A DNA stretch of 64,000 nucleotides from an uncultured Acidobacteriota bacterium (GCA_963827655.1 CAWHCF010000049.1:352001-416000); one strand, 5' to 3'; shown: positions 1-17,260, counted from the stretch's first letter. Notes: a model not told the origin generated them from the sequence alone. Made by a program: numbers and translations.

Positions 1-2555
1 ATTCCCATTGGACAGTGTCTTGACACTCACTTTGAGGGGTTGGAAGATGCCCTCCGTGCTGGCATTGGTAAGCCTGGCGTTAATCGTAAATCTGCCAGCG
101 GGCGCACCCGGACCGGGGGTGGGGTCAAAGGAGGTTTGTGTCACAACAAAGGTGACCAGGTCATTGACAATCTGTTGCTCACACACCGGTAGTGGAACAC
201 CAGCGGAAAGATTCGCGTCGAGCTTGGCGACAAAGACTTCACCGTCGCCTGCAAAGGTCATGTCCGCTGAGCCTGCCCCGATGCCGGGAAAGTCAGCGGA
301 GGTTGTACCACCCGCCACATAAACATTCCCCATGCTGTCCAGGGCGACGGCACTAGCGCCCGTCAGAACTACTCCCCCCCAGGAAGGTGGCCGCCAAGAG
401 CGTGCCGAGATTGGCATCAAGCTTCGCCACAAAGGCTTCATTGAATCCACCAAACGTGCTATCGGCCGAGCCCACTCCGATCCCAGGAAAGTCGCGGGAG
501 TTTGTAAGACCCGCCACATAGACATTCCCCATGCTGTCCAGGGCAAGGGCACAAGCGATTTCAGAAAATAAAAAAGCAGCTCCCCCCCAGGAAGGTGGCT
601 CCCAGGAGCGTGCCGAGATTGGCATCGAGCTTCGCCACAAAGCCTTCACCATACAACAAAAGTACTGTCGGCCGAGCCCGCCCCGATGCCCGGAAAGTCG
701 GCGGAGCTTGTGATACCCGCCACATAAACATTCCCCATGCTGTCCAGGGCGAGGGCACCAACGCCGTCAGAATCACCAAAAATGCGGACCACTCCCTCCC
801 AGGAAGGTGGCCGCCAGCAGTCTGCCGAGATTGGCATCGAGCTTCGCCACAAAGGCTTCCTGGCTTCCAGAAAAGGCGCTGTCGGCCGAGCCCCCCGGAC
901 CCCGGGGAAGTCTGAGGATTGTGTGAAACCCGCCACATAGACATTCCCCATGCTGTCCAGGGCGAGGGTCACCAGCCGGAATACCACCGCCGCTCCCCCC
1001 CAGGAAGGTGGCCGCCAGAAGTCTGCTAAGATTGGCATCGAGCTTCGCCACAAAGGCCTCACCGTCTCCAGAAAAGGCGCTGTCGGCCGAGCCCGCCCCG
1101 ATCCCGGGAAAGTCGGCGGAAAAGGTGAAGCCCGCCACATAGACATTCCCGATGCTGTCCAGGGCGAGGGCATTGGCGGAATCAGCACTGCTCCCCCCCA
1201 GGAAGGTGGCCCCCAGCAGTCTGCTAAGATTGGAATCGAGCTTCGCCACAAAGGCTTCACCGCCTCAGCAAAGATGCTGTCGGCTGAGCCCGCCCCGACC
1301 CCGGGGAAGTCTGAGGACTCTGTAAAACCCGCCACATAGACATTCCCCATGCTGTCCAGGGCGAGGGCACAACCTCAGCGAAATCGACCACTCCCCCCCA
1401 GGAAGGTGGCCGCCAGCAGACTACTGAGATTGGCATCGAGCTTCGCCACAAAGGCTTCACTGTCTCCTGCAAGGATGACAAGGTGCTGTCGGCTGAGCCC
1501 GCCCCGACCCCGGGAAAGTCGGTGGATTCTGTAGAACCCGCCACATAGACATTCCCCATGCTGTCCAGGGCGATGGCGAAAGGTTGCAGCGAAATCGTCA
1601 AAACCACTCCCCCCAAGGAAGGTCGCCGCCAGGATAGGATCGATCACCAACTCTTTTGTCTTGTCATACTCGCCAACCTTAAAGCCGTACTCATTTCCCT
1701 TTACTACATAGGCCACCGCCACCAACTCTTGTTTGCCTCCCTCGTCCTGATAGGCCACAGGCTTGGAGAATCTCACTGTTCCCAGCTTTGTCTCGACCTC
1801 CAGTTCCCCCTGCTCAGCGACCTTTACTCCCTTCCCACCCTGCACCCGCACCTTGATCTGTTCCGGCCGAGCTCCAGGTCGCACATAAAAGAGCTTCTCC
1901 GCCGTGTGCCCATAGGCCTTGAGCTTCACTTCCACTCCCTCATACACTTCTCCCAGACTCACACAATCGTATGCGGGAATATCATTCGTCCACTTCGATC
2001 GGTTATTCCCCTTGAAGTAGTTCAGCTTGGTAGTCGTCTGACCCTCTCCCTCCACTGCTTTCACTTTTCCCCCTACGAGCTCCTCCCGCAAAGCGACTCC
2101 CCGGCTTGGCCTCTTTCCCTCCCCTTGGGACAGGGCATACACGAACGCGCCTTTCTGTGTGACAAAAACCGTTCCCCCAAAGGTAGGGGCATAGAAGGTG
2201 ACCTCTGCATCCGTCTGTCCCTGATTCTTGATAAAAGGAATATGCAGCTTCCCGATCTTCTGCCGGACTGCCTTTAGGACGTTGTCCTTGTGGCCAAGCG
2301 CATGTGATGGCTGCGAGACGAAAACGCCCTGGGTACCATCGGCGGAGTGGCGATCGGCCCCTAGAGCCCCTGCTCCACCAAAGTGTCCGAGAGCCAGCAG
2401 AGAGACGATTAAGGCCACCAGAGACACACGCAGCGCTCTGCCGGACGGCCTCTTGCCACTGTTTTCTGCCTTGGTTGCCGCTTCAGCTTCGGCTCCCGCC
2501 ATGTTTTTGTGCTCTCCTGTGCTGCTTGCGATAGCCGAACTGTTTCCTCTTCCAT
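1..2555 (-). CDS. Secreted SBBP-repeat 7-bladed beta-propeller protein with N-terminal accessory domain and C-terminal ~120-aa shared domain (frameshifted; 3' end beyond window)
   Basis: ATG 2555 with GGAGA RBS; hydrophobic signal segment; PFIKNQGQ..NYFKGNNRSKW..ELVIDP N-domain; 7 repeats of LAATFLGGS..ALALDSMGNVYVAG.T.S.DFPG..EAFVAKLDANL across frames; near-identical to 9943-12649. Confidence 0.85.
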
Positions 2556-2811
2556 GGTCATCTCCCTGGCCACTAATTTGTCGGCCTCAATTTGCTATTA
2601 GCGTTCCCTATTAGTTCTCTCCATCTCTTTCCGTCTTTATGCCGTCGTCTAAGAACAAAAGTTGGCTACCAGAGCACTAGCACATCTTCAGAAGAGCTTG
2701 TGCAATCCATGGAGCATTGCTCAAGGATTGTGTTGAAAGTGCTGCTAAGTCCCCGGCGGCGGGAGAGTGGCTCAGAAAGGAGCTTCGCTGAATTATCCAG
2801 GGGCACGCCCT

Positions 2812-2978
2812 CCGGCACCGACTGCCGTCTTTTTCAGGTGCCAGATGGCTGCTTCCACCTCACGCCGCTCGTGCGGGGCGAGGTCAAGCTGCTGGAACGC
2901 TGTCTCCGGCGTGGGCATGACGTGCCCAAAGCGCACCCCCTGGTTCCCAAGACGGCCCGCGAGCCCAACCATTTCGAT
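2812..2978 (-). pseudogene. Internal fragment of a radical SAM paralog of 5322-6371
   Basis: IEMVGLAGRLGNQGVRFGHVMPTPETAFQQLDLAPHERREVEAAIWHLKK aligns with AEMIELAARLGSSGVRFGHLMPTPETALRGLDLSPVQRRGVEAEIWRLQK; no CX3CX2C. Confidence 0.8.
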
Positions 2979-3243: not shown

Positions 3244-3826
3244 ATGGCCGGGTTGCCGCGGCCGGCAGCATTCAGCCACCAACGGTGGCCTGGGGGGATT
3301 CTTGACTTTCAGGGTAACGTGATGTTGGCTTGCTGTCGATCTTTTCGTACCGTCCGAGAACGCGTCGCCCAGGCATGGCTTGCCGCTCGTCTAGGCAGTT
3401 TCCTTTGTCTACTGCCGGTTCTTCTTCGTATCTACTCTCTTCCGCGCGTCCTGCAGCGGCTCGGGAAACCTTCGCAAGACCCCTGGGGGAGGTTTTTGCA
3501 GTTCGAATCAATTGTTCAGGTTGTCAGGAGGATGAGCAACTTGCCGTTTTTACGTCCCCCTCTCTTTCCCCGCTCCTGTCTTCTTCATTCTCTGATCTAC
3601 TACCACGCGTTGCGCGGGCGCGGGATACACCGTACAGATTCATTTTGGGATTCGCAGGACCGGGGCGGAACTGCAAGGTCATAGCTGGCTAACCATACCC
3701 AAAATGCCAGCCGCCCAAGGAAATCGCACGAAAGCGTTTAATACAATTTTTTCGTACCCTTCGACTTCATTCTTGTCTTCTGGCCAGGAGGCCAACAGAA
3801 TTGAGAACGAAGTTAAGTCCACTTAG
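3244..3826 (+). CDS. Lasso-type B2 leader peptidase (transglutaminase-like), one frameshift near 3625
   Basis: SCLLHSLIYYHALRGRG (catalytic Cys motif), then in the shifted frame VQIHFGIRRTGAELQGHSWL (catalytic His motif); stop TAG 3824-3826; start uncertain. Confidence 0.8.
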
Positions 3827-3839
3827 CATGGAGGCATCG

Positions 3840-4019
3840 ATGGACGAAAAGAAAACAGAAAATTCGCTCGAAGAACACGACCAGGAGAAATCTGTCGCTT
3901 TTTCGCCGCCACGCAAAAAGGCCTGGGAAGAGCCGAGGCTGTCGTATGTCAAACCCAAGCTTACGATACATGGGTCGCTGAAGGAGCTGACTGGTTTCTT
4001 CGGCGGATTTACTCCCTGA
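3840..4019 (+). CDS. RiPP precursor peptide, 59 aa (lasso-type leader, core (G)FFGGFTP)
   Basis: GGAGG RBS at 3830; MDEKK..KAWEEPRLSYVKPKLTIHGSLKELTGFFGGFTP; exact YxxPxLx3Gx5T leader; lies between B2 and kinase genes. Confidence 0.85.
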   Translation: MDEKKTENSLEEHDQEKSVAFSPPRKKAWEEPRLSYVKPKLTIHGSLKELTGFFGGFTP

Positions 4020-4169: not shown

Positions 4170-5303
4170 TTGAAGCCCATCCTTACCTACCCAAAGCAAC
4201 CGAGAAGAGGGAAGCGCACTTACTACGCCCTTCACGATCTCTTGCTGGAGGTGGAAGAAGAAACAGAGGGAGACGGAAAGGATCTGGCACGGCTTCTGTG
4301 CGACCTGACGTGTGTGCAAGCCGGGCCTCGGGCCCACAACCCAAGTCTTCGAATCACCGTCGCCAATGACGTGAATTTGCGCAGAATCCCGAGAGGTTGC
4401 CGGGAGGTTCTTCAGGCTGATGGATTCAGCGGGCTCGAGAGAGCGGGTGAGTTCTACTTGACCGACGGCTCATCTCTGTTTCGCCTGCGGCCTTTGCTGT
4501 CCCGGGGGGATGCTCAGATAGCTCCTTCGTTTTTTGATAAACCGCCAATCCTTCAAAGAAACTTCTGGGCTTTTGGGCTACTGAAACTCCTGAGACCCTT
4601 GGGTGTGTATAGTCTTCATGCCGCCGGTGTGGCCGCTAGCAAGGAACTGGGCGTCTTGATCGTCGGGGAATCGGGCAGTGGGAAATCCACTCTGGCGTTA
4701 GACTTGATCCGACAAGGCTGGAGCTACCTTGGGGATGATGCGGTACTCCTCCGGATGCAGCCGGAGGGCGTGGAGGCGCTGGCATTCCGTAGGAATTTCT
4801 ATGTCGATGCTAGCGCCGGTGGAGACAATTTAGATTTTCCCTTAGGCGAGCATGTGCCGGATTCCTTTGGGAGGAGAAGGCGAATGGTACATGTCGAAGA
4901 AGCCCGTCCAGAACAATACATTGCCGCGTGCATCCCGCGTGTTCTTCTATTCTCAAAAATCATTGCCGGCTCGCAGAGTACGCTCGCTCCTTTGGACCGT
5001 AGCATCGCCCTCAAGCGCTTGCTCGCCGCCAGTGGCCCGCAATTGTTTGACCGAAACACCATGGCTGAACACCTGGAACTCCTTAGTGTTCTCTTGCGGC
5101 AGACGGTTAGCTACCAGTTAACCGCCGGGCGCGACCTTTACCGCAATCCTGTCAAACTCGCGAATCTGCTTCGTGCTTCATTTCATAATTACGGTGACTT
5201 TGCGCCGCCGCGGGGGATGGCGGGCGTTGCATTGCCTCCGAGAGGAAAAAGAACACCGCCGCGCAAGCCAGCTTCAAGTAGCATAGTTATGAAAGAAGAC
5301 TGA
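4170..5303 (+). CDS. HPr kinase-like P-loop kinase (RiPP-associated)
   Basis: LHAAGVA, Walker A GESGSGKST, YLGDDAVLL. Confidence 0.8.
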   Translation: MKPILTYPKQPRRGKRTYYALHDLLLEVEEETEGDGKDLARLLCDLTCVQAGPRAHNPSLRITVANDVNLRRIPRGCREVLQADGFSGLERAGEFYLTDGSSLFRLRPLLSRGDAQIAPSFFDKPPILQRNFWAFGLLKLLRPLGVYSLHAAGVAASKELGVLIVGESGSGKSTLALDLIRQGWSYLGDDAVLLRMQPEGVEALAFRRNFYVDASAGGDNLDFPLGEHVPDSFGRRRRMVHVEEARPEQYIAACIPRVLLFSKIIAGSQSTLAPLDRSIALKRLLAASGPQLFDRNTMAEHLELLSVLLRQTVSYQLTAGRDLYRNPVKLANLLRASFHNYGDFAPPRGMAGVALPPRGKRTPPRKPASSSIVMKED

Positions 5304-5321: not shown

Positions 5322-6371
5322 ATGGCGCGACTTGTTATAGAGCTGACCAATCGGTGCAACCTGATGTGTGAACACTGCTTCGACGAGAGGCATGCTGGCA
5401 CCGGGGACCTGCCGTTGGAAGTCATCGACAAAGTGCTTGGGGAAGGGAAGAGTTGTGGTATCGACCACCTGGCTTTTACTGGCGGAGAGCCGACCATTCA
5501 TCGTCAGTTTCATGAAATCGTGCGTCGCGTCTGCAATGCTGCGTACACCTTTAGCCTCGTTAGCAACGGCACTACTTTTCCCGAAGTGTATCCGTTGCTT
5601 GTCGAGAACCAAAGATGGTTCAAGGGCGTAACCTTCAGCCTTGATGGAGCACGACAGGAAACCCATGATGCGTTGCGGGGAAATGGATCGTATCGTCGAG
5701 TAGCAAAGGCAGTCAGCATCTGTGCTTTCAAGAACATCCCCTTTACCCTCAATATGGTCCTGACTGCCAAGAATCGAACAGAAATAGCAGAAATGATCGA
5801 ACTGGCTGCCCGATTGGGAAGTAGCGGGGTGCGCTTCGGCCACCTGATGCCGACACCTGAGACGGCACTGCGAGGTCTCGATCTTTCCCCTGTGCAACGG
5901 CGGGGAGTGGAAGCAGAGATCTGGCGACTCCAGAAGAGTGCTCCGGTGCCGGTCTATATGGCGCCCGGATACTACAGCGAATCCCCCTTCTTTCCGTGTG
6001 CCCCCCTGGAACTTGAGGAATTCAACCTGGACCACCGGGGGAACGTTACCCTCTGCTGTCAGCTTTCAGGCTATTCAGGACCAGTATCCGGCACTGACGT
6101 CATAGGCAATCTGCGCGAGGTAAGCCTCGCCGAAGCGTGCAACAACTTCCGACTGCGAGTGGCTAGATACCTGGACGACAAGCGGGATCGGATCCGCCAA
6201 GGAGCATTTAGCGATCTGGACCATTTTCCTTGCTGGTACTGCATGAAATATCTGGACAAAGTGACCCGACTCAAAAACTTTCCACAGCACTCGTGGGCCC
6301 ACGAGAATGCCGAGATTATTGCTGAGGGAGTACATGTTCACTCTGGATCAAAAGCTTGGAGTTCACCCTGA
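5322..6371 (+). CDS. Radical SAM enzyme with C-terminal SPASM/twitch-like Cys motifs
   Basis: CNLMCEHC, FTGGEP, SLDGA..HDALRG.GSY; C-terminal FPC..GNVTLCC..C..CWYC. Confidence 0.92.
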   Translation: MARLVIELTNRCNLMCEHCFDERHAGTGDLPLEVIDKVLGEGKSCGIDHLAFTGGEPTIHRQFHEIVRRVCNAAYTFSLVSNGTTFPEVYPLLVENQRWFKGVTFSLDGARQETHDALRGNGSYRRVAKAVSICAFKNIPFTLNMVLTAKNRTEIAEMIELAARLGSSGVRFGHLMPTPETALRGLDLSPVQRRGVEAEIWRLQKSAPVPVYMAPGYYSESPFFPCAPLELEEFNLDHRGNVTLCCQLSGYSGPVSGTDVIGNLREVSLAEACNNFRLRVARYLDDKRDRIRQGAFSDLDHFPCWYCMKYLDKVTRLKNFPQHSWAHENAEIIAEGVHVHSGSKAWSSP

Positions 6372-6618
6372 GGTTGTTGATACCGAACTCGACACGAGTG
6401 AAACGGCTCTGCTCCACCTCGGAAGCAAAATCTACTACAGCCTCAACGCGACAGGAGTGCGGGTTTGGCAGGGTCTCAAGCAGGGACTCACGCTGAACCA
6501 GATCAGTCAGAGTCTTCAGGAAGAGTTTGATGTGGATGCTCAGACGGCCAACCGCGGTGTGCTTGAACTCGTTGAGGATCTCAGCCAGCAAGGGCTGGTT
6601 CAAGTTCTCGACCCATGA
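6334..6618 (+). CDS. PqqD family RiPP recognition element (RRE)
   Basis: LLHLGSKIYYSLNATGVRVWQGL..L.EEFDVD..V.ELVEDL.QQGLV; GAGGGAG RBS. Confidence 0.9.
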   Translation: MFTLDQKLGVHPEVVDTELDTSETALLHLGSKIYYSLNATGVRVWQGLKQGLTLNQISQSLQEEFDVDAQTANRGVLELVEDLSQQGLVQVLDP

Positions 6619-7134
6619 TCATCCGTCCGGCCAGGGGTGAAGATCTCCCGAGTTTGGCCGTCCTCTTTCGACAAGAGATCGCGTATCAGAGGCAGATCTG
6701 TCCATTTTGGGAGCTCTCGCCTCAGTTCGATTGTCTGAGCTTTTTGCAGACCAAGCTGAGCAATCCCCACGAGCGGCTGTTTGTAGCGGAGCGAAACGCG
6801 CAACTATTAGGTTATATCCTTGTCCGGGTCATCCAGGCGCCTCACCATCGTTTTCCGAGAAACATCTTTAGACATTTTTTTTCAGAGAAATCAACTCTTG
6901 CATTCATCCGGCCGCCCAACACTGGCTCCATTGAGGACTGCTATGTCGAACCACAGTCGCGGCGGCAGCGAGTGGGCAGCGCTCTGTTGAAACAGGGTCT
7001 TGAGATGGTTGGAGGCACAAGGGGTAAGGCACATAGAGCTCGCAGTCTCCGCGGGAAATGGAGATGGCATTGCTTTTTGGGAGAGGCAGGGCTTCGTCTC
7101 GTCTCGATTCCTTATGTTCAAGGAGATCGGCTGA
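6615..7134 (+). CDS. GNAT N-acetyltransferase (frameshift near 7000)
   Basis: MIIRPA..D, IEDCYVEPQSRRQRVGSALL; shifted frame GVRHIELAVSAGNGDGIAFWERQGF; ATGA overlap with PqqD stop. Confidence 0.85.
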
Positions 7135-7137
7135 ATT

Positions 7138-8397
7138 ATGCAATGGATTCCTCCGTTGAATCTATCTCCTGAATGGAGATTTGTACTCGCGTCCGCCCGA
7201 ACCGACATTCCTCTGCATGACCTGCAGATTGGTCTAGCTAGCCAGGATTTAGATTGGGATCGCGTGACAGAAATCTCATACCGGCATGGTATAGCGCCGC
7301 TGATCTATTACAACCTCAAGCGCCGCGAGGTTACCGGTGTCGTGACAAGCAGTGCGTTGAACAAATTGAAGGAATCCTATTACGGCAATGCAGCCAGAAA
7401 TGGACTTCTTTACCGTGAACTGCATAAGGTCCTGGGATCCCTCAAAGATGTGGGAATTGAGGTTATTGTGCTGAAGGGCGCAATGCTTGCGGAGACCGTA
7501 TATCCGAATCGAGCTCTAAGACCGATGAACGATATCGATCTTCTGGTCAGAAAGGAAGCTGTATCGAGAGCCGAGGATAAGCTCGCTGAGCTTGGCTACA
7601 GTTTGCGCGAAAGTCCCAGATCGAAAGAATGGTTTAAAGAATATCATCACCATTTACCTCTTGTCAGGTACGAGGCCGGTCCCCTCGAAATTCACTTGGA
7701 AGTTCATTGGGATATCCAAGGCCCAGGGAAACCGTTCAAGATAGGGATCGACAGAATTTGGAGCACAGCACTGCCGGTCACGATAGCCGGTGTTGAGTGC
7801 TCCGTGCTGTCCAGGGAGGACTTGCTACTGCATCTATGCCTCCATACCTGTCACCCCCACAAGTTGACCGGCGGGATAAGATCTCTTTGCGATATCGCCG
7901 AAACTATCCAGCGGTATGGTCGACAGATCGACTGGAATCAGTTACAGACTCGTTCGTCTCGATGGCGAATAAATCAATACGTTTACCTCACGCTGCGTCT
8001 CGCCAAGGAGCTATTGGGAGCGGAGGTTCCGGATCCCGTATTAGACTCTCTTGAGCCCCACGGCTTCGACCGCGGGCTGGTCCGGTGGGCAAAAGAAGAG
8101 ATTCTGGGAGACAAGGAAGCTTCCCCAATCTTTCCTGAGCTCGCGCAACTATGGAGCGGGCGCCGTATTAAAGACAGGTTGCAGATCCTGGTGAGGATAC
8201 TTTCCCCAAAATTAATCGCAAAGTATCAGGGAATTTCGCCGGCGTCAAAGAGAATCTATCTCCATTATCCGGCACGGCTCAAAACCCTTTTCTTGCGGTA
8301 TGGTCCGGTGCTGTGGGGCCTGGTTCGTTGCGATCGGAAACTAACAGCGGCAGCGGAGGGAAAAGCGCGATTGGCGGAGTGGCTGAATAAGTGCTGA
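7138..8397 (+). CDS. Nucleotidyltransferase family protein (NTP_transf_5-like, as in lasso clusters)
   Basis: VIVLKGAMLAETVYP..LRPMNDIDLLV, LEVHW, LLLHLCLH, LCDI. Confidence 0.88.
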   Translation: MQWIPPLNLSPEWRFVLASARTDIPLHDLQIGLASQDLDWDRVTEISYRHGIAPLIYYNLKRREVTGVVTSSALNKLKESYYGNAARNGLLYRELHKVLGSLKDVGIEVIVLKGAMLAETVYPNRALRPMNDIDLLVRKEAVSRAEDKLAELGYSLRESPRSKEWFKEYHHHLPLVRYEAGPLEIHLEVHWDIQGPGKPFKIGIDRIWSTALPVTIAGVECSVLSREDLLLHLCLHTCHPHKLTGGIRSLCDIAETIQRYGRQIDWNQLQTRSSRWRINQYVYLTLRLAKELLGAEVPDPVLDSLEPHGFDRGLVRWAKEEILGDKEASPIFPELAQLWSGRRIKDRLQILVRILSPKLIAKYQGISPASKRIYLHYPARLKTLFLRYGPVLWGLVRCDRKLTAAAEGKARLAEWLNKC

Positions 8398-8475: not shown

Positions 8476-9878
8476 GTGGCAAGTCGACTACGTGAGCCAG
8501 TTGACCGAGTCGAAGGATTCAGAGGCCGAACCCATCTACTTCTGTTTAGACGCCGAGAACGGATGATCTCGACCGTATTGTGCTTTGCGCCGTGACGGGT
8601 GGAGTGAGGCATTAATCGTCAGGTGTTGCACGAAGGAATCGGGCGTGAGGACGACGCTGAGGCGCAACGAAACTCGCGTGATATAGTGCGACAATCCGCA
8701 AAAGCTTGAAACACATCCTGGGCAAATTTTGACACAGCGAATGCACGTGAGCGTGTGTCAGGAAGGCACGGTGAGTCATGAATACACAGAACAGTAACAC
8801 GATCGGTTTCAACAGATGGTTTGGGATGATGTGCGTGTGGGGAGTGGCGGCCCTGATTGCGCTGACCGCGACGTCTGCGGAGGCCGCGGGATTTAACGTC
8901 AATAGCGAGGTGACGTTCACTCCGCTCCCCTCGACATACACGACGACCACCAGCACGACCGGCTGTCCGGCAGCATTTTCCGGAAAGTTCACCTTTACCG
9001 CCCTGTTAACGAATAAGACCGGAAGCCCGGCGATGCCGGGTCTGACCGTCCGCGTCGTGACGCTCACCAACGGTAATCTGCTGCTGGACCCGCAAACCAA
9101 CGCCGTCCTAGGCGGAGAGGGCGCGGAGATGACAGTACCCAAGGTGGAGCAGTATGCCGACGGCCTGCTCAGTCCGGGCGAGTCGGTGAACGTCCCGTTC
9201 TCGGTGTGCTTAAAGACATTTCAACCGTTTCAGTTTTTCGTGGACGTGTTCGGTGTCGTGACCCGATTGGTCAGCATCAACCGGTTTGGAACCGGGTCCG
9301 GCAATGGCTCTTCGTTTGTCCGCCCAGCGGCGATCAGCGCGGACGGCCGTTTCGTGGCATTCGACAGCGCAGCGAGCGATTTGGTGGCAAACGATACCAA
9401 CGGCTACCGACGACGTGTTCGTGCGGGATCTGCAGCTGGGGACGACTACGTTGGTGAGCATCAACCGGTTTGGAACCGGGTCCGGCAATGGCTCCTCCTT
9501 CGCCTCCGTGATCAGCGCGGACGGCCGTTTCGTGGCGTTTCCAGCGCAGCGAGCGATTTGGTGGCAAACGATACCAACGGTATACCAACGACGTGTTCGT
9601 GCGGGATCTGCAGCTGGGGACGACTACGTTGGTGAGCATCAACCGGTTTGGAACCGGGTCCGGCAATGGCTCTCGGTTGGTCTCCGTGATCAGCGCGGAC
9701 GGCCGTTTCGTGGCATTCAGAGCGTTGCGAGCGATTTGGTGGCCAACGATACCAACGGTACCAGCGACCTGTTCGTGCGTCCTGTCGCGCCCTGAGGAAG
9801 TGCGGAATTCAGGATCTTTCACAGGCGTTGCACAATCATTCACTGCCCCGACTTAGTGGTGGCAAGTCGACTACGTGA
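8476..9878 (+). repeat. Perfect 20-bp direct repeat GTGGCAAGTCGACTACGTGA at 8476-8495 and 9859-9878
   Basis: Both copies read directly; they bracket the 8778-9795 gene. Confidence 0.85.
8778..9795 (+). CDS. Secreted protein: signal peptide + ~120-aa shared domain + three TolB/PD40-like repeats (frameshifted)
   Basis: Signal peptide ending SAEA; 3 near-identical ~180-nt units LVSINRFGTGSGNGSS..ISADGRFVAF.S.ASDLVANDTNG..DVFVRDL. Confidence 0.8.
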
Positions 9879-9942
9879 CGGATTTTAATATGAAATTACA
9901 ATGGCAGATTAAGGTCACGAAACTAATGGCGCGGAGGTAACC

Positions 9943-12649
9943 ATGGAAGAGGAAGAAGTTCGGTTATCACAAGCAGCACAGGAGAGCACAAAAACATGGC
10001 GGGAGCCGAAGCTGAAGTGGCAAACCAAGGCAGAAAACAGTTGCAAGAGGCCGTCCGGCAGAGCGCTGCGTGTGTCTCTGGTGGCCTTAATCGTCTCTCT
10101 GCTGGCTCTCGGACACTTTGCTGGGGCAGGGGCTCTAGGGGCCGATCGCCACTCCGCCGATGGTACCCAGGGCGTTTTCGTCTCGCAGCCATCAGATGCG
10201 CATAGCGACAAGGACAACATCCTAAAAAACAGTCCGGCAGAAGATCGGGAAGCTACATATTCCTTTTATCAAGAATCAGGGACAGACGGATTCAGAGGTC
10301 AGCTTCTATGCCCCTACCTTTGGCGGAACGGTTTTTGTCACACAGAAAGGCGCATTCGTGTATGCCCTGTCCCAGGGGAAGGGAAAGAGGCAACAGGGGA
10401 GTCGCTTTGCGGGAGGAGCTGGTAGGGGGAGCAGTGAAAGCAGTGCAGGGAGAGGGCAAGACGACTACCAAGCTGAACTACTTCAAGGGGAATAACCGAT
10501 CGAAGTGGACGAATCACATTCCCACATACGATTGTGTAAGTCTGGGAGAAGTGTATGCGGGGGTGGAAGTGAAGCTCAAGGCCTATGGGCACACGGCGGA
10601 AAAGCTCTTTTATGTGCGACCTGGAGCTCGGCCGGAGCAGATCGAGCTGCGGATGCGAGGCGGGAAGGGATTAAAGATCACCAAGCAGGGAGAACTGGAG
10701 GTCGAGACGGAGCTGGGGACAGTGACATTCTCCAAGCCTGTGGCCTATCAGGAAGAGGGAGGCAAGCAAGAGTTGGTGGCGGTGGCCTATGTAGTAAAGG
10801 GCAGTGAGTACGGTTTTAAGGTTGGCGAGTATGACAAGACAAAAGAGTTGGTGATCGATCCTATCCTGGCGGCCACCTTCCTGGGGGGGAGTGGTCTTGA
10901 CGCCATTAGTGACTTCGCCCTGGACAGCATGGGGAACGTCTATGTGGCGGGTGTCACAACCTCTCCACGACTTTCCCCACATCGGGACGGGCTCAGCCGA
11001 CAATACCTTTGCAGGCGGCACTGAAGCTTTTGTCGCCAAGCTCGATGCCACTCTCAGCACGCTCCTGGCGGCCACCTTCCTCGGGGGAGTGGCTTTTTTG
11101 GTGAGGAGGCTGGGGCCCTTGCCCTGGACAGCGTGGGGAATGTCGATGTGGCGGGTTCCACAGACTCCTCAGACTTTCCCGGGGTCGGGGCGGGCTCGGC
11201 CGACAGCACCCTTGTGGAGGGCAGTGACGTTTTTGTGGCGAAGCTCGATGCCAATCTCCGCACGCTCCTGGCGGCCACCTTCCTGGGGGGGAGTATTCAA
11301 GACTTCGCTGGTGCCCTCGCCCTGGACAGCATGGGGAATGTCTATGCGGCGGGTTTCACCGTTCCGTCGACTTTCCTGGGATCGGAGTGGGCTCGGCCGA
11401 CAGTACCTTTGCTGGAGCCTGGGAAGGCTTTTGTGGCGAAGCTCGATGCCAATCTCAGGACACTGCTGGCCGTCACCTTCCTGGGGGGGAGTGGTGTTGA
11501 CGCCATTAATGCCCTCACCCTGGACAGCATGGGGAATGTCTATGTGGCGGGTTGGACAGCCTCCTCAGACTTCCCCGGGGTCGGGGCGGGCTCGGCCGAC
11601 AGCACCTTTGCTGGAGGCAGTGAAGCCTTTGTGGCGAAGCTCGATGCCAATCTAAGCAGACTGCTGGCGGCCACCTTCCTGGGGGGGAGTGCTGTTAATA
11701 ATGAACAGGTTCATGCGGCCTCGCCTTGGACGGCACGGGGAATGTCTATGTGACGGGCTTCACAGAATCCGCCGACTTTCCTGGGGTCGGGGGGCGGTTC
11801 GGCCGACAGCACCTTTGCTGGAGGCAGTGAAGCCTTTGTGGCGAAGCTCGATGCCAATCTTAGCAGACTGTCTGGCGGCCACCTTCCTGGGGGGGAGTGG
11901 TGTTGACTCCGCTCTCTGCCCTCGCCTTGGACGGCACGGGGAATATCTATGTGACGGGTGGCACAGGATCCACCGACTTTCCTGGGGTCGGGGGCGGTTC
12001 GGCCGATAGTCACCTTTGCTGGAAGCAATGAAGCCTTTGTCGCCAAGCTCGATGCCAATCTCGGCACTCTGCGAGCGGCCACCTTCCTGGGGGGAGCAGT
12101 AGTGAAGGCGCCGGTGCCCTCGCCCTGGACAGCATGGGGAATGTCTATGTGGCGGGTTCCACGGAGTCCTCAGACTTCCCCGGGGTCGGGGCGGGCTCAG
12201 CTGACGTGACCATTGCCGGAGGCAATGAAGCCTTTGTCGCCAAACTCGACCCGAATCTCTCTCGTGATGTTCCACTACCGGTGTGTAAGCAACAGATTGT
12301 CAATGACCTGGTCACCTTTGTTGTGACACAAACCTCCTTGGACCCTACCCCCGGCCCTCGTGCGCCCGCTGGCAGGTATACGATTACCGCCAGGCTCACC
12401 AACGCCAGCACGAAGGACATCTTCCAACCTCTCAAAGTGAACGTCGTGACGCTGTCCAATGGGAATAGGCTCGTCAGCGCCACAGAGGGGAACGGAGGGC
12501 CCGGCAGCAAGCAGGGCATTAATGCTGGCGCTGATGATACCCTGACCGCCAATGAGTCAGTCCTAGTCCAGTTTGTTATCGGATTGGTCGAGAGGAGCCC
12601 CTTCAGTTTCTTTGTAAATGTAGAGGGATGTGTTCGCGCTGACCCCTAG
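9943..12649 (+). CDS. Secreted SBBP-repeat 7-bladed beta-propeller protein, paralog of 1-2555 (frameshifted)
   Basis: GGAGGT RBS + ATG 9943; same N-domain; 7 LD(S/G)xGNxxVxG repeats at ~200-nt spacing (10920-12130); C-terminal shared domain ending FFVNVEGCVRADP. Confidence 0.85.
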
Positions 12650-12934: not shown

Positions 12935-13480
12935 ATGAGCCTACTGTCATGCCGGTTGAGAAACGTAGTGACGCTGGTGGCTTTCTTTGGCGCCTTTGCG
13001 ACCGTTGGACTTGCCCGTGACTGGAGCTTGAATCTGAGACAGGGGAATCAAGATTCAGCAAGATTCACTCTAAAGGTTAAAGACGGGAGGGTGTCGATTG
13101 GGGCGAAAGACATCTCCGTCGCAGAAATCTTCAAGGACCTCAGTCAGCAGACCGGAATACCTATTGAAAATACGCTGAGAACTGAAGAAAGGATCACGAT
13201 CCAGTTTAGCGATTTGCCGATGGCGGAAGCGGTGGCGAGGCTGGCTAACGTATTGATCTTCTATGACAAGAATCCTGCCGATCCAACATCTCCGCGGATC
13301 GTCAAGATCGTAGTATCTGCGAAGGGGAAGGAAGTTTCGGCTACCGCCCTCAAGCCTGCCCCTGCCGCCGGTGCGGTTGGAGAACCTGAGAAGACTCCGG
13401 CACCCAAGCCTTTCGAGTTTGTCTTGGACCCGTCCAAGCCTTCACAGGCGCCCGAGAAGAAGACTCGCAAGGAGAACTAG
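12935..13480 (+). CDS. Exported protein with secretin/TonB N-terminal (STN/N0)-like domain
   Basis: Signal peptide; VSIGAKDISVAEIFKDLSQQTGIPI..ITIQFSDLPMAEAVARL; Pro/Lys-rich tail. Confidence 0.6.
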   Translation: MSLLSCRLRNVVTLVAFFGAFATVGLARDWSLNLRQGNQDSARFTLKVKDGRVSIGAKDISVAEIFKDLSQQTGIPIENTLRTEERITIQFSDLPMAEAVARLANVLIFYDKNPADPTSPRIVKIVVSAKGKEVSATALKPAPAAGAVGEPEKTPAPKPFEFVLDPSKPSQAPEKKTRKEN

Positions 13481-13495
13481 TCTCCCGAACCTCAC

Positions 13496-13900
13496 ATGAG
13501 AAATTTTCTCTGGCTTGGCGTTGTCCTGGGGTTTGTCAGTATTCGGTTAGCTTCCGCAGGGGAGAAAGTCAGCCAAGGTGTTATTGAGGCTCTGCGGAGA
13601 GAAGGTGGAGCGAACGTAGTTGTCGCACTTGTAGAGCCTCTGTCCATGCGGGCGCCGCGGATTGATCTGCCCACACTGAGGAGCGAGATCGCGAGTATGC
13701 AGTCTCAGGTGTTGTCGACACTGGACCCTACGGATTACCGCGAGAGGCACAGGTATGAGACTATCCCCAGCTTGGCCATTTGGGTCGCGAAGGCGGGGCT
13801 TGCGAAGTTAATAGCGCATCCCAAAGTAGTGAGAATCGACCTGGATGTCGGCGGTACAGGGAAGCCTAGAAAAAGAAAGTGCGATAGGCACCGCAAATAG
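13496..13900 (+). CDS. Stand-alone subtilase signal peptide + prodomain (I9-like), duplicate of the N-terminus of 13939-15570
   Basis: Colinear and highly similar to the next gene up to IDLDVGGTG, then stops. Confidence 0.75.
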   Translation: MRNFLWLGVVLGFVSIRLASAGEKVSQGVIEALRREGGANVVVALVEPLSMRAPRIDLPTLRSEIASMQSQVLSTLDPTDYRERHRYETIPSLAIWVAKAGLAKLIAHPKVVRIDLDVGGTGKPRKRKCDRHRK

Positions 13901-13938: not shown

Positions 13939-15570
13939 ATGAAAAATTTACTATGGCTTGGGATTCTCCTGGGGTTTGTCGGTGTTCGATTAGCTTCCGC
14001 ACAGGAGAAAGTCGGTCAAGGCGTTATCGAGATTCTACAAAGAGAGGGTGGGGCGAACGTAGTCATCGCACTCGTGGAGCCTCCATCCATGCGGGCATCG
14101 CAGATTGATCTGCCCATCTTGAGGAGCGAGATTGCCAGTCTACAAGCTCAGGTGTTATCCACCTTATATGCTTCGGATTACCGTGAGAGACATAGATTCC
14201 GAGCTGTGCCCGCCTTGGCGGGCCGGGTAAGCAGGGCTGGACTTGCAGAACTTGTAGCAAATCCCAACGTGGTGAAAATCGACCTGGATGTTGGCGGTAC
14301 CGGGAGCCTAGCAAACAGTGTCCCGCTCATTCGTGCTGATGATTGGCACGCACTCGGAATCACGGGTAGGGGGGTGGTAGTGGCCGTACTTGATACGGGG
14401 ATTGATACGGATCATGTCGACCTAGCCGATGATCTTGTTCACCAAGAATGTTTTCTTGATTTCGACGGAGCAATTAACGGGGTAGGGCGCTGTCCCAACG
14501 GTAGTGATAGACAATCGGGAGACGGCGCGGCAGAAAGCGGACTAAACCACGGGGTGATGACGACAGGGATAATCACTTCACGAGGGACCGTGAGTTCAGT
14601 TGGCGTTGCACCGGATGCTAAAATCGTGTCGATTAAGGTCCTCGATAACACCCAACCTGCTGGCATATTCGCATTTTTCTCAGAGTTAGTAGCCGCGTTG
14701 GATTTCATTATCAACAATCGCCCCGATGTGAAAGTCATCAATATGAGCCTTGGGACGTTTGCTTTGTTCGCGGGTAACTGTGATAGCGCGACAGCCTTCA
14801 ACATGGCCGGCGCAGCTGCCATCAATACGTTACGGAAAAATGGGGTAATCGCCTTTGCGGCTTCAGGTAATAATGGATCAGGAACTCAGATGACGTCTCC
14901 TGCCTGTATCAGTAACGTGGTATCGGTGGGAGCTACGAATAATGTCGATAATGTAGCAGCTTTCACAAACAGTAATGCTTTTCTCGATCTTATGGCGCCC
15001 GGGGTTTATATCACATCTACGGCGTTGGCTAATGGAATCGCAACCGGGTCCGGAACGAGCTTCGCAAGTCCTCACGCGGCGGGTTGTGCCGCTCTGTTCG
15101 TTGATGCGGGGATAGCTGTAAGTCCTGCCCAGATTGAGGCGCGCCTAAAAGCATCGACGGTACGGATTACTGATCCGAAAAATGGTCTTGCATTTCCAAG
15201 GCTCGACTGCTTTGTTGGTGTGGAGATTGTTAACGACTTGGTCTCAGTGGCTCCATTAGTCACTTCCTCAAGTACTACTCCGGTTCCGAATGGTCCTGCT
15301 GGAATATTCGGTATTATAACAACCTTTACCAACACCAGTTCCACTTCTATACTGAATCCATTCTTTGGAGTTGTAGAACTCTCCGGTGGAAACTTGTTGC
15401 TCAATGCCGATAGTGGTCCAGGTGGAGTTGGAGCCACTTTGACTCCTAATGTAGGCGCTGATCGGATTTTATCACCGGGAGAATCTTTTAATGTGATTTT
15501 TATAGTTGGTCTTCAATCCAGTCAGCGTTTCACATTCTTTGTCAATCTGTCAGGAGTGCCAGATCCATAA
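13939..15570 (+). CDS. Secreted S8 subtilisin-like serine peptidase with C-terminal shared domain
   Basis: VAVLDTGI, NHG, AASGN, GTSFASPH triad motifs. Confidence 0.93.
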   Translation: MKNLLWLGILLGFVGVRLASAQEKVGQGVIEILQREGGANVVIALVEPPSMRASQIDLPILRSEIASLQAQVLSTLYASDYRERHRFRAVPALAGRVSRAGLAELVANPNVVKIDLDVGGTGSLANSVPLIRADDWHALGITGRGVVVAVLDTGIDTDHVDLADDLVHQECFLDFDGAINGVGRCPNGSDRQSGDGAAESGLNHGVMTTGIITSRGTVSSVGVAPDAKIVSIKVLDNTQPAGIFAFFSELVAALDFIINNRPDVKVINMSLGTFALFAGNCDSATAFNMAGAAAINTLRKNGVIAFAASGNNGSGTQMTSPACISNVVSVGATNNVDNVAAFTNSNAFLDLMAPGVYITSTALANGIATGSGTSFASPHAAGCAALFVDAGIAVSPAQIEARLKASTVRITDPKNGLAFPRLDCFVGVEIVNDLVSVAPLVTSSSTTPVPNGPAGIFGIITTFTNTSSTSILNPFFGVVELSGGNLLLNADSGPGGVGATLTPNVGADRILSPGESFNVIFIVGLQSSQRFTFFVNLSGVPDP

Positions 15571-15791: not shown

Positions 15792-16769
15792 ATGGCTCGC
15801 GATCCCTTCGTTTTTGTTGGCACGCTAGGCCAGGGAATCTTTCGCTCCGATGACGGCGGGCTTTCGTTCGTTCGCAAGAGTGTCGGGATGAACTTCGAAT
15901 GCGACGTGCGGGCTCTGGCGGTGCATCCCCAGAATCCGCGGCTGCTATATGCCGGAACCAACGAAGGGCTGTACCGCAGTGACGATGCCGGCGAGCATTG
16001 GGCCCGTCTCGATTCGCCCATGAATCACCTGGTCACGTGGTGTGTGCTGGTCGATCCGCGGCAGCCGGAGGTATTGTTTGCCGGAACACGACCGGCGCGT
16101 ATCTTCCGCTCGACAGACGCCGGTCGCAACTGGGTGCAGCTCGATGTCGCGATCGCCCAGCATTGCGACAACCTGGTCTACAATCGGGTGACCACACTGT
16201 TGCCCGATCCAAACGTCTTCGAAGGGTTGTGGGCCGGGATCGAGATTGATGGTATTTGGGGGAGCTCTGATCTCGGTGAAAGCTGGTCACGGCATAGTGC
16301 AGGGTTGTCTTCGCTCGATATCCATTCGATGGTAATCGTTCCGCGCGACGGGGCTTCACGACGCATCTTCGCATCGACGAACAACGACCTGAACCTGAGT
16401 ACCGATGAAGGCCGGATGTGGCGGCCGCAGAGTCTCCAGGCGAAGTTCGAACTGCCCTACTTTCGCGGAACCGCGCAGAAGTCCAATGACGCAAACGTCC
16501 TGCTTCTGGGCAACGGAGACGCGCCGCCAGGTCGCGTCGGGGCCCTGTGGCGATCCGGCGACGGCGGCATCACGTGGGACCAGGCACAGTTGCCGTGCGT
16601 GCCAAACAGCACGATCTGGGGGTTCGCGGTTCATCCCGCCGATCCTGACCGGATTTACACATACAGCGTCAGCGGCGAGCTGTACGGGTCGGTAGACGGC
16701 GGGATCGAATGGGAGAAGCTCCCGCGTGAGTTTGGCGAAATCCGGGCCGTCTTGTGGACTCCCGCTTGA
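15792..16769 (+). CDS. BNR/Asp-box (WD40/YVTN-like) beta-propeller protein
   Basis: Repeated RSxDxGxxW Asp boxes. Confidence 0.8.
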   Translation: MARDPFVFVGTLGQGIFRSDDGGLSFVRKSVGMNFECDVRALAVHPQNPRLLYAGTNEGLYRSDDAGEHWARLDSPMNHLVTWCVLVDPRQPEVLFAGTRPARIFRSTDAGRNWVQLDVAIAQHCDNLVYNRVTTLLPDPNVFEGLWAGIEIDGIWGSSDLGESWSRHSAGLSSLDIHSMVIVPRDGASRRIFASTNNDLNLSTDEGRMWRPQSLQAKFELPYFRGTAQKSNDANVLLLGNGDAPPGRVGALWRSGDGGITWDQAQLPCVPNSTIWGFAVHPADPDRIYTYSVSGELYGSVDGGIEWEKLPREFGEIRAVLWTPA

Positions 16770-16850
16770 CCGTTTTGAGAACGAGCGAATGAAAGTGAAA
16801 CCGAAAAACTCGGTTCCGTCCGAAAAGCGCTGGAGCAGGCCGACGGAAGC

Positions 16851-17260
16851 TACGACTGGAGCGCGCAGGTAGAAGTGCAGCGGCTGGCCGCTTCTGCCTG
16901 GGTGGCGCACGCGGAAGGAAACAACGAGGAGGCAGTCCGGCTGATGCGCTCGGCTGCTGAGCTGGAAGACACGACCGGGAAACATCCAGTCACGCCGGGA
17001 GCGGTCCTTCCCGCACGGGAGCTGTTGGGAGATCTCTTCCTCGAGCTCGACCAGCCGACGCGGGCATTGCCTGAATTTGAAACTGCGCTCCGCAATTTGC
17101 CGAAGCGGTTCAATGCGACCTACGGCGCTGCGCGCGCAGCCGAGCTGTCAGGCGACCGAAAAAGGCGAAAGAGCGTTACACGGAACTGATCGAACTTTGC
17201 GCCGATGCCGATTCTGCCAGGCTGGAACTGCAAAATGCGAGGGCATTCCTGCAGCGCTAA
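16851..17260 (+). pseudogene. C-terminal fragment of a TPR protein
   Basis: AAELEDTTGKHPVTPGAVLPARELLGDL..PKRFNATYGAARAAELSGD; no N-terminal part present. Confidence 0.6.

Follow-up and report, generated by a model that had tools for sequence, protein, structure and literature searches.

A lineage-specific N-terminal extension of secreted beta-propeller proteins carries a leader-like motif that is probably incidental

Some Sec signal peptides carry N-terminal extensions, such as the extended signal peptide region (ESPR) of autotransporters. We compared such extensions, and the leaders of peptides made by the ribosome and modified after translation (RiPPs), with an element in a 64,000-nucleotide stretch from an uncultured Acidobacteriota bacterium (GCA_963827655.1, CAWHCF010000049.1; G000:C49:352001-416000; below, the window), where genes for secreted beta-propeller proteins of the DUF7948-SBBP type start with a 43-residue extension beside a radical SAM operon. 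According to PMC13381572, discrete lasso-type RiPP recognition elements (RREs) recognise the motif [Y/W]xxPx[L/V/I/F/A], binding in the two RRE-leader pairs studied there depends first of all on the aromatic residue, and precursors of the LPP family are 35-200 amino acids (aa) long. The 43-residue extension contains a motif of this form. We read it as a translated, lineage-specific extension of a Sec signal peptide whose leader-like motif is probably incidental and is not a selected docking site for an RRE, and we give this reading a probability of roughly 0.6.

The extension was set beside both kinds of described system. Like the lasso-type leaders for PqqD-like RREs that PMC13381572 and PMC10368454 describe, it has an aromatic-x-x-P-x-L core after lysines, and the operon beside it encodes a PqqD RRE together with a B2 peptidase, an HprK-like kinase and an NTP transferase; its tryptophan is shared with paeninodin-type leaders and with an extra motif of the local precursor. 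Unlike those leaders, it precedes the signal peptide of a 903-aa secreted protein and belongs to no short precursor, and it lacks the G-x5-T-x signature, a core peptide, a conserved aromatic residue and a match to a lasso-leader model. The likeness to extended Sec signal peptides lies in a charged N-terminal stretch before an ordinary n-h-c signal peptide and in the large secreted repeat protein that follows. The difference from the ESPR is that the extension has no sequence relation to it and is confined to one small paralogue family. With residues 1-160 of copy B as the query, no Pfam family was matched at E <= 0.01, the ESPR-type model included.

Three neighbouring copies of the DUF7948-SBBP gene (A, B and C) each start with the 43-residue tail. 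The first-pass annotation had claimed for two of them that they start behind a ribosome-binding site (RBS) with a leader-like motif ahead of the hydrophobic segment, and the sequences of copy B (9943, plus strand) and copy A (2555, minus strand) bear this out. Both begin MEEE(E/T)VRLSQAAQESTKTWREPKLK. Copy B reads MEEEEVRLSQAAQESTKTWREPKLKWQTKAENSCKRPSGRALR, acidic and then basic, followed by VSLVALIVSLLALGHFAGAGALGA, and copy A, in which GGGAGA precedes the ATG, reads MEEETVRLSQAAQESTKTWREPKLKR. All three copies have the residues W19-R-E-P22-K-L24, and their homology starts about 40 nucleotides (nt) upstream of the ATG, at a -10-like element. Copy C, which lies just before the window, is in phase throughout, from the extension over the hydrophobic segment, DUF7948 and the SBBP repeats to the C-terminal domain. 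P0122, a 449-aa fragment from another assembly, is almost identical to copy C and confirms that the extension is in frame. In copy B, ATG 9943 is the sole in-frame ATG, GTG or TTG upstream of the basic n-region KRPSGRALR. The extension is thus real and, in the intact paralogue, in frame.

The ratio of non-synonymous to synonymous substitution rates (dN/dS) of the extension was 0.24-0.44 (0.27 for codons 1-43 of B versus C), compared with 0.78 for codons 44-76 and 0.57 over 351 codons of the A-C comparison in the DUF7948 part, all from few sites. The ratio over the extension is consistent with translation in the annotated frame. By inspection, the segment has the features of a Sec-type signal peptide, with KRPSGRALR as the n-region, VSLVALIVSLLALGHF as the hydrophobic part and AGAGALGA followed by D at the putative cleavage site; a signal anchor is possible. 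Translation would begin at ATG 9943 in copy B, at 2555 in copy A and at C49:351263 in copy C. The 43-residue tail would remain cytoplasmic, the hydrophobic segment would target the protein to the membrane and, if the chain is cleaved between ALGA and D, the tail would depart with the signal peptide. On this reading the extension belongs to a small, recently duplicated DUF7948-SBBP family and lengthens, at the N-terminal side, the n-region of what is a Sec-type signal peptide or else a signal anchor. The mature part is typical of DUF7948-SBBP proteins (PF25778, E 2.7e-53 in copy A and 6.5e-46 in copy B; PF06739, SBBP, E 3.5e-11), and 1,310 propeller homologues were found at E <= 0.001 among 8,000 scored.

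Copies A and B differ from copy C by indels of 1-11 nt, and for many of them the length is not divisible by three or the site is not a homopolymer. The idea that every frameshift stems from assembly error was considered and rejected, since many of the indels measure 2-11 nt and fall outside homopolymers and the genome holds 181 open frames of at least 1,000 aa. With a genome that is not full of errors as a whole, decay or local mis-assembly is the likelier explanation for copies A and B. The first-pass annotation had put the extension of copy A out of frame by one missing A, and the three-way alignment agrees: one A of CAAACC is missing at about 2476, just after the motif, so the extension and the signal peptide are in different frames. 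P0124, a 159-aa fragment of a different source that is similar to copy A, keeps the frame through the site of the deletion, and given this fragment the missing A is a late lesion or an error. Each of the single-base lesions, in copy A (about 2476), in copy B (10224-10229) and in the operon's B2 gene (about 3620), falls in a homopolymer run and could be an error. As assembled, copy A encodes a free-standing 48-aa peptide (2409-2555, minus strand) in which the leader-like tail is followed by ...ERCVCLWWP and a stop, that is, a leader-plus-Cys-rich-tail arrangement adjoining the radical SAM operon. Since the A-like P0124 is in frame, this peptide is probably meaningless.

The first-pass annotation had proposed a search for the extension in homologous propeller proteins, and this search went against a conserved motif. 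The homologue set comprised the 120 best matches to residues 1-330 of copy C, with an identity of at most 63%. None of the 120 has an aromatic-xxPxL before its hydrophobic segment and none has the 43-residue extension; they carry ordinary short signal peptides, and the pattern matches fell inside DUF7948 or in or after the hydrophobic segment. When a 66-aa query was run against the genomes of 40 relatives, including the unpublished G034, the best match had E 0.0128. Among short proteins, a word search with the first 45 residues brought up P0122, P0124 and the window's own fragment, P0123, and no others. P0124 is thus the sole outside variant found. It reads TKTSQEPKLK (motif KTSQEPKL), so the key aromatic residue of the motif is lost in it. 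An aromatic residue conserved as in lasso leaders was therefore not found, with a serine in P0124 and the motif before the hydrophobic segment in 0 of the 120 homologues.

Co-occurrence of propeller gene and operon, also proposed as a check, fared no better. The HprK-like protein was matched in 19 of 400 further genomes of the phylum, from which 11 loci were taken; G014, of the same family but another genus, gives a twelfth. None of the 11 phylum loci has a DUF7948/SBBP gene within 10 kb of the operon. G014 does have a neighbouring propeller gene, and its protein starts MKTWNCHTTFSVQIMVWLSLALG, an ordinary signal peptide. The cleavage signature x3-G-x5-T-x and a core peptide are absent from the extension, where position +9 is T and +15 is C and where a signal peptide and an 840-aa protein follow. 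Lasso-leader models (NF033521, lasso_leader_L3, and NF033528) gave no match at E <= 0.01 with residues 1-160 of copy B. Against the eight precursors from other genomes, with the window's own precursor excluded, the extension showed non-significant similarity (p 0.34-0.94). A 20-column hidden Markov model built from the leader block of these eight was searched against the six-frame genome; the three copies of the extension were absent from its 775 matches, and the window's own precursor fell outside the best 15 of the 775. The search is treated as uninformative. The generic pattern [FWY]..P.L has 4,711 six-frame matches in the genome. The sequence of the extension, its frame, its start codon and its restriction to one lineage are shown directly; that the motif has no function is inferred, as are the topology at the membrane and the cleavage site.

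Several observations weigh the other way, and they are the basis for a functional reading in which the cytoplasmic tail docks on the operon's PqqD through W19-x-x-P22-x-L24. The propeller pre-protein might then be held for modification or timed export, the RiPP machinery might be tethered at the membrane, or the released signal peptide might titrate the RRE. The first-pass annotation had named (Y/W)xxPxL as the RRE-binding motif; this agrees with the (Y/W)xxPx(L/V/I/F/A) that PMC13381572 gives for discrete lasso-type RREs, and the tail fits it in all three copies. The tail and the local precursor have K-x-W-x-E-P-[KR]-L in common. The pattern K.W.EP[KR]L, defined after the match had been seen, has 4 occurrences among 13.1 million six-frame residues, one in the precursor and one in each of the three copies, all within 11 kb, and W.EP[KR]L occurs only 10 other times. 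Both motifs of the W type are confined to this genome, and the eight remaining precursors of the family have F. By dN/dS the numerical constraint on the extension is no weaker than that on the rest of the protein, and an SBBP gene adjoins the operon here and the homologous operon in G014. Complex prediction with a PqqD alignment of 125 rows and residues 1-45 of copy C gave 0.56 versus 0.04 for the best of 3 controls, graded as weak support; the runs agreed in at least 90% of contacts, with a partner pLDDT (the predictor's per-residue confidence) of at least 56. Of 157 solved complexes 116 reached the mark, as did 2 of 215 mismatched pairs, and scores up to 0.60 came from only 18 of the 157 solved complexes and from both mismatches that passed. 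Because RRE-leader complexes have already been solved, for example in PMC13381572, the predicted pass may reflect only a likeness to those structures. The idea of the first-pass annotation that the large secreted proteins are RRE clients thus has the weak support of the modelled complex but neither conservation nor general co-occurrence on its side: W is S in P0124, neither the G014 neighbour nor any of the 120 homologues has the motif, and an SBBP gene is close by in 0 of 11 other operon loci. Moreover, two of the three genes that carry it are broken, the operon's B2 gene has a frameshift, and a literature search found no RRE acting on the signal peptide of a large protein. We therefore regard docking as rather unlikely. 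Its fuller form is that the RRE serves a second class of client, the W-type motif in the signal-peptide tail docking on PqqD and coupling export or modification of the whole protein to peptide maturation, or the signal peptide, once released, tuning that machinery through competition with the precursor, itself a bearer of a W-type and a Y-type motif; this form we hold to be unlikely. None of the papers listed by a literature search joined RREs with signal peptides or beta-propellers. If the tail does dock on the RRE, this would be the first case found of an RRE addressing the signal peptide of a large secreted protein, and the machinery of peptide natural products would be linked to protein export. 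Otherwise, the locus is a caution that a six-residue leader motif, even with eight positions in common with a local precursor, can turn up next to a RiPP operon when neither conservation nor co-occurrence backs it.

Descent of the extension from a precursor gene was the other proposal of the first-pass annotation. In this account a precursor-like 5' end (start codon, acidic N-terminus and W-type motif) was fused to the propeller signal peptide during duplications and has no RiPP role. The locus is indeed duplicated and heavily rearranged, as the radical SAM remnants upstream of copy A and upstream and downstream of copy C indicate; the three cover residues 157-223, 220-312 or 220-273 at 42-64% aa identity, and remnants interleaved with tandem propeller copies point to duplication of a unit that included part of the radical SAM gene. 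The extension aligns best with the window's own precursor (local score 35-38, shuffle p about 0.02; p 0.04-0.06 against the best of the nine family members; p 0.05 at the DNA level), and both start with ME and an acidic run and have W where the eight other precursors have F. These statistics are marginal and partly post hoc, however, and when the precursor was compared with the genome by tblastn the extension was absent among the matches listed (15 on contig C49, E <= 100). The upstream remnants of A and C come from the radical SAM gene and not from a precursor gene, which in such operons lies upstream of the kinase and not after the radical SAM gene. The N-termini of the nearest propellers, MKTW in G014 and MKTSSPRL in P0006, likewise look like KTW and P[KR]L, with equally non-significant scores (p 0.17-0.75). 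Capture of a precursor's 5' end therefore has marginal similarity in its favour and the upstream DNA against it, and seems quite unlikely. Origin from an ancestral propeller N-terminus was tried as well and rejected, the likeness of MKTW and MKTSSPRL to KTW and KTSQEPKL being the same non-significant one. A Shine-Dalgarno-like AGGAG precedes codon 16 of the extension. A last reading places the true start at codon 44, which is ATG in C and GTG in the other two copies, and makes the extension an untranslated 5' leader. Codon 44 could be used as a start in all three copies, and codons 16-43 are nearly invariant at the DNA level, which would also suit an RNA element. However, a signal peptide starting there would have no charged n-region, and codon 44 has no Shine-Dalgarno-like sequence, whereas GGAGG or GGGAG stands before codon 1 in all copies. 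The frame is moreover open and in phase in copies B and C, P0122 and P0124, and synonymous changes exceed non-synonymous ones per site, so that a start at codon 44 is very improbable. A translated signal-peptide extension with an incidental motif remains the reading that we prefer.

As shown in Table 1, the propeller copies lie around an operon that has the lasso B2 peptidase gene and a precursor gene at its head.

Table 1. Positions of the propeller copies, their N-terminal elements, the radical SAM remnants and the operon; positions are those of the window unless prefixed C49.
Feature	Position	Strand	Details
Copy A, DUF7948-SBBP gene	1..2555	-	broken, runs off window start; 15 indels vs C, 91% nt identity
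Leader-like motif, copy A	2484-2507	-	
Radical SAM remnant upstream of copy A	2775..2975	-	residues 157-223 of the operon's radical SAM enzyme, 61% aa identity
Lasso-type B2 peptidase gene	3388..3775 (approx.)	+	homologous to a G014 gene scoring 63.7 bits on lasso_biosyn_B2
Precursor peptide, 63 aa	3828..4019	+	lasso_leader_L3 21.4 bits, cut-off 19, residues 40-57
Extra W-type motif KAWEEPRL of precursor	3918-3941	+	
Canonical YVKPKL-x3-G-x5-T-x of precursor	3945-3995	+	fits Y-x2-P-x-L-x3-G-x5-T-x
HprK-like kinase	4170..5303	+	
Radical SAM/SPASM enzyme	5322..6371	+	
PqqD-family RRE	6334..6618	+	likely start M10 of the open reading frame opening at 6307
GNAT acetyltransferase	6615-7172	+	
NTP_transf_5 nucleotidyltransferase	7138-8397	+	
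Promoter-like GTGACG-16-TACAAT upstream of copy B	9875..9902	+	promoter scan
RBS GGAGG	9933..9937	+	5 nt spacing before ATG 9943
Copy B, DUF7948-SBBP gene	9943..12649	+	several frames; 14 indels vs C, 86% nt identity
Copy B codons 1-43, extension MEEEEVRLSQAAQESTKTWREPKLKWQTKAENSCKRPSGRALR	9943..10071	+	acidic, then basic
Leader-like motif K17-T-W-R-E-P-K-L24, copy B	9991..10014	+	
Copy B codons 44-67, hydrophobic segment and ALGA	10072..10143	+	putative signal-peptidase site, by eye
A-run with one extra A vs copies A and C	10224..10229	+	first frameshift of copy B, three-way alignment
Radical SAM remnants upstream and downstream of copy C	C49:351440-351714; C49:348288-348448	-	
Copy C	C49:348555-351263	-	intact 903-aa frame, 737-3445 nt before window start

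The B2 gene is split by a single extra G in a run of G, either an assembly error or a very recent lesion, and keeps a catalytic-looking Cys (RSCLLHSL) and GHSW. The precursor reads ...PPRKKAWEEPRLSYVKPKLTIHGSLKELTGFFGGFTP. The eight precursors from other genomes (L020, L042, L044, L045 and L047-L050) share K-K-x-F-[VI]-[EAK]-P-[ET]-[LIV] and an FF-containing C-terminus, and tandem W-type and Y-type motifs occur only in the window's precursor among the family. The family sits in operons with B2, HprK-like, radical SAM/SPASM, PqqD and NTP_transf_5 genes and without a cyclase, and no match to an Asn-synthase cyclase was found on contig C49. The cassette recurs in G014. HprK, radical SAM and PqqD genes were all present in 7 of the 11 phylum loci, and an eighth locus is cut by a contig end. 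A search for related loci in the genome_contigs set with the HprK-like protein yielded a single short and irrelevant match.

The trio of an HprK-like protein, a PqqD-like chaperone and a radical SAM/SPASM enzyme is the same as in SynChlorMet and GeoRSP-type systems (NCBIfam TIGR04249-04251 and TIGR04302-04303). All matches to those models were sub-threshold, far below the curated cut-offs, and the operon in the window differs by the addition of the lasso B2 peptidase, the lasso-type leader, GNAT and NTP_transf_5. A literature search found no paper joining at least five of the terms lasso peptide, radical SAM, HPr kinase, PqqD, nucleotidyltransferase and SPASM. With a lasso-type leader, B2, an RRE, radical SAM/SPASM, an HprK-like kinase, GNAT and an NTP transferase, and with no cyclase on the contig, the operon deserves a look of its own.

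Other genes of the neighbourhood were also recorded. A small secreted protein (12935-13480, plus strand; in L020 at 16239-16880, minus strand; also in L044 and L045) adjoins the operon or the propeller gene in G014 and two phylum loci; it has 34-39% identity among loci and no family match. A domain of about 110 aa (...IVNDLV...T.T...FF.FFVN..G), which matched no Pfam family, lies at 12293-12634, 15229-15558 and 8967-9257 on the plus strand and at 1-174 on the minus strand. The propellers and an S8 peptidase (13939-15570) have it at their C-termini, the repeat protein at 8778 in its N-terminal part. This repeat protein (8778-9800, plus strand) consists of units ...ISADGRFVAF.SAASDLVANDTNG... 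encoded by tandem DNA repeats of 86-89% identity with frame changes, and had no Pfam match. A 134-aa open reading frame (13496-13900, plus strand) duplicates residues 1-137 of the S8 peptidase next to it, at 67% identity, and then reaches a stop.

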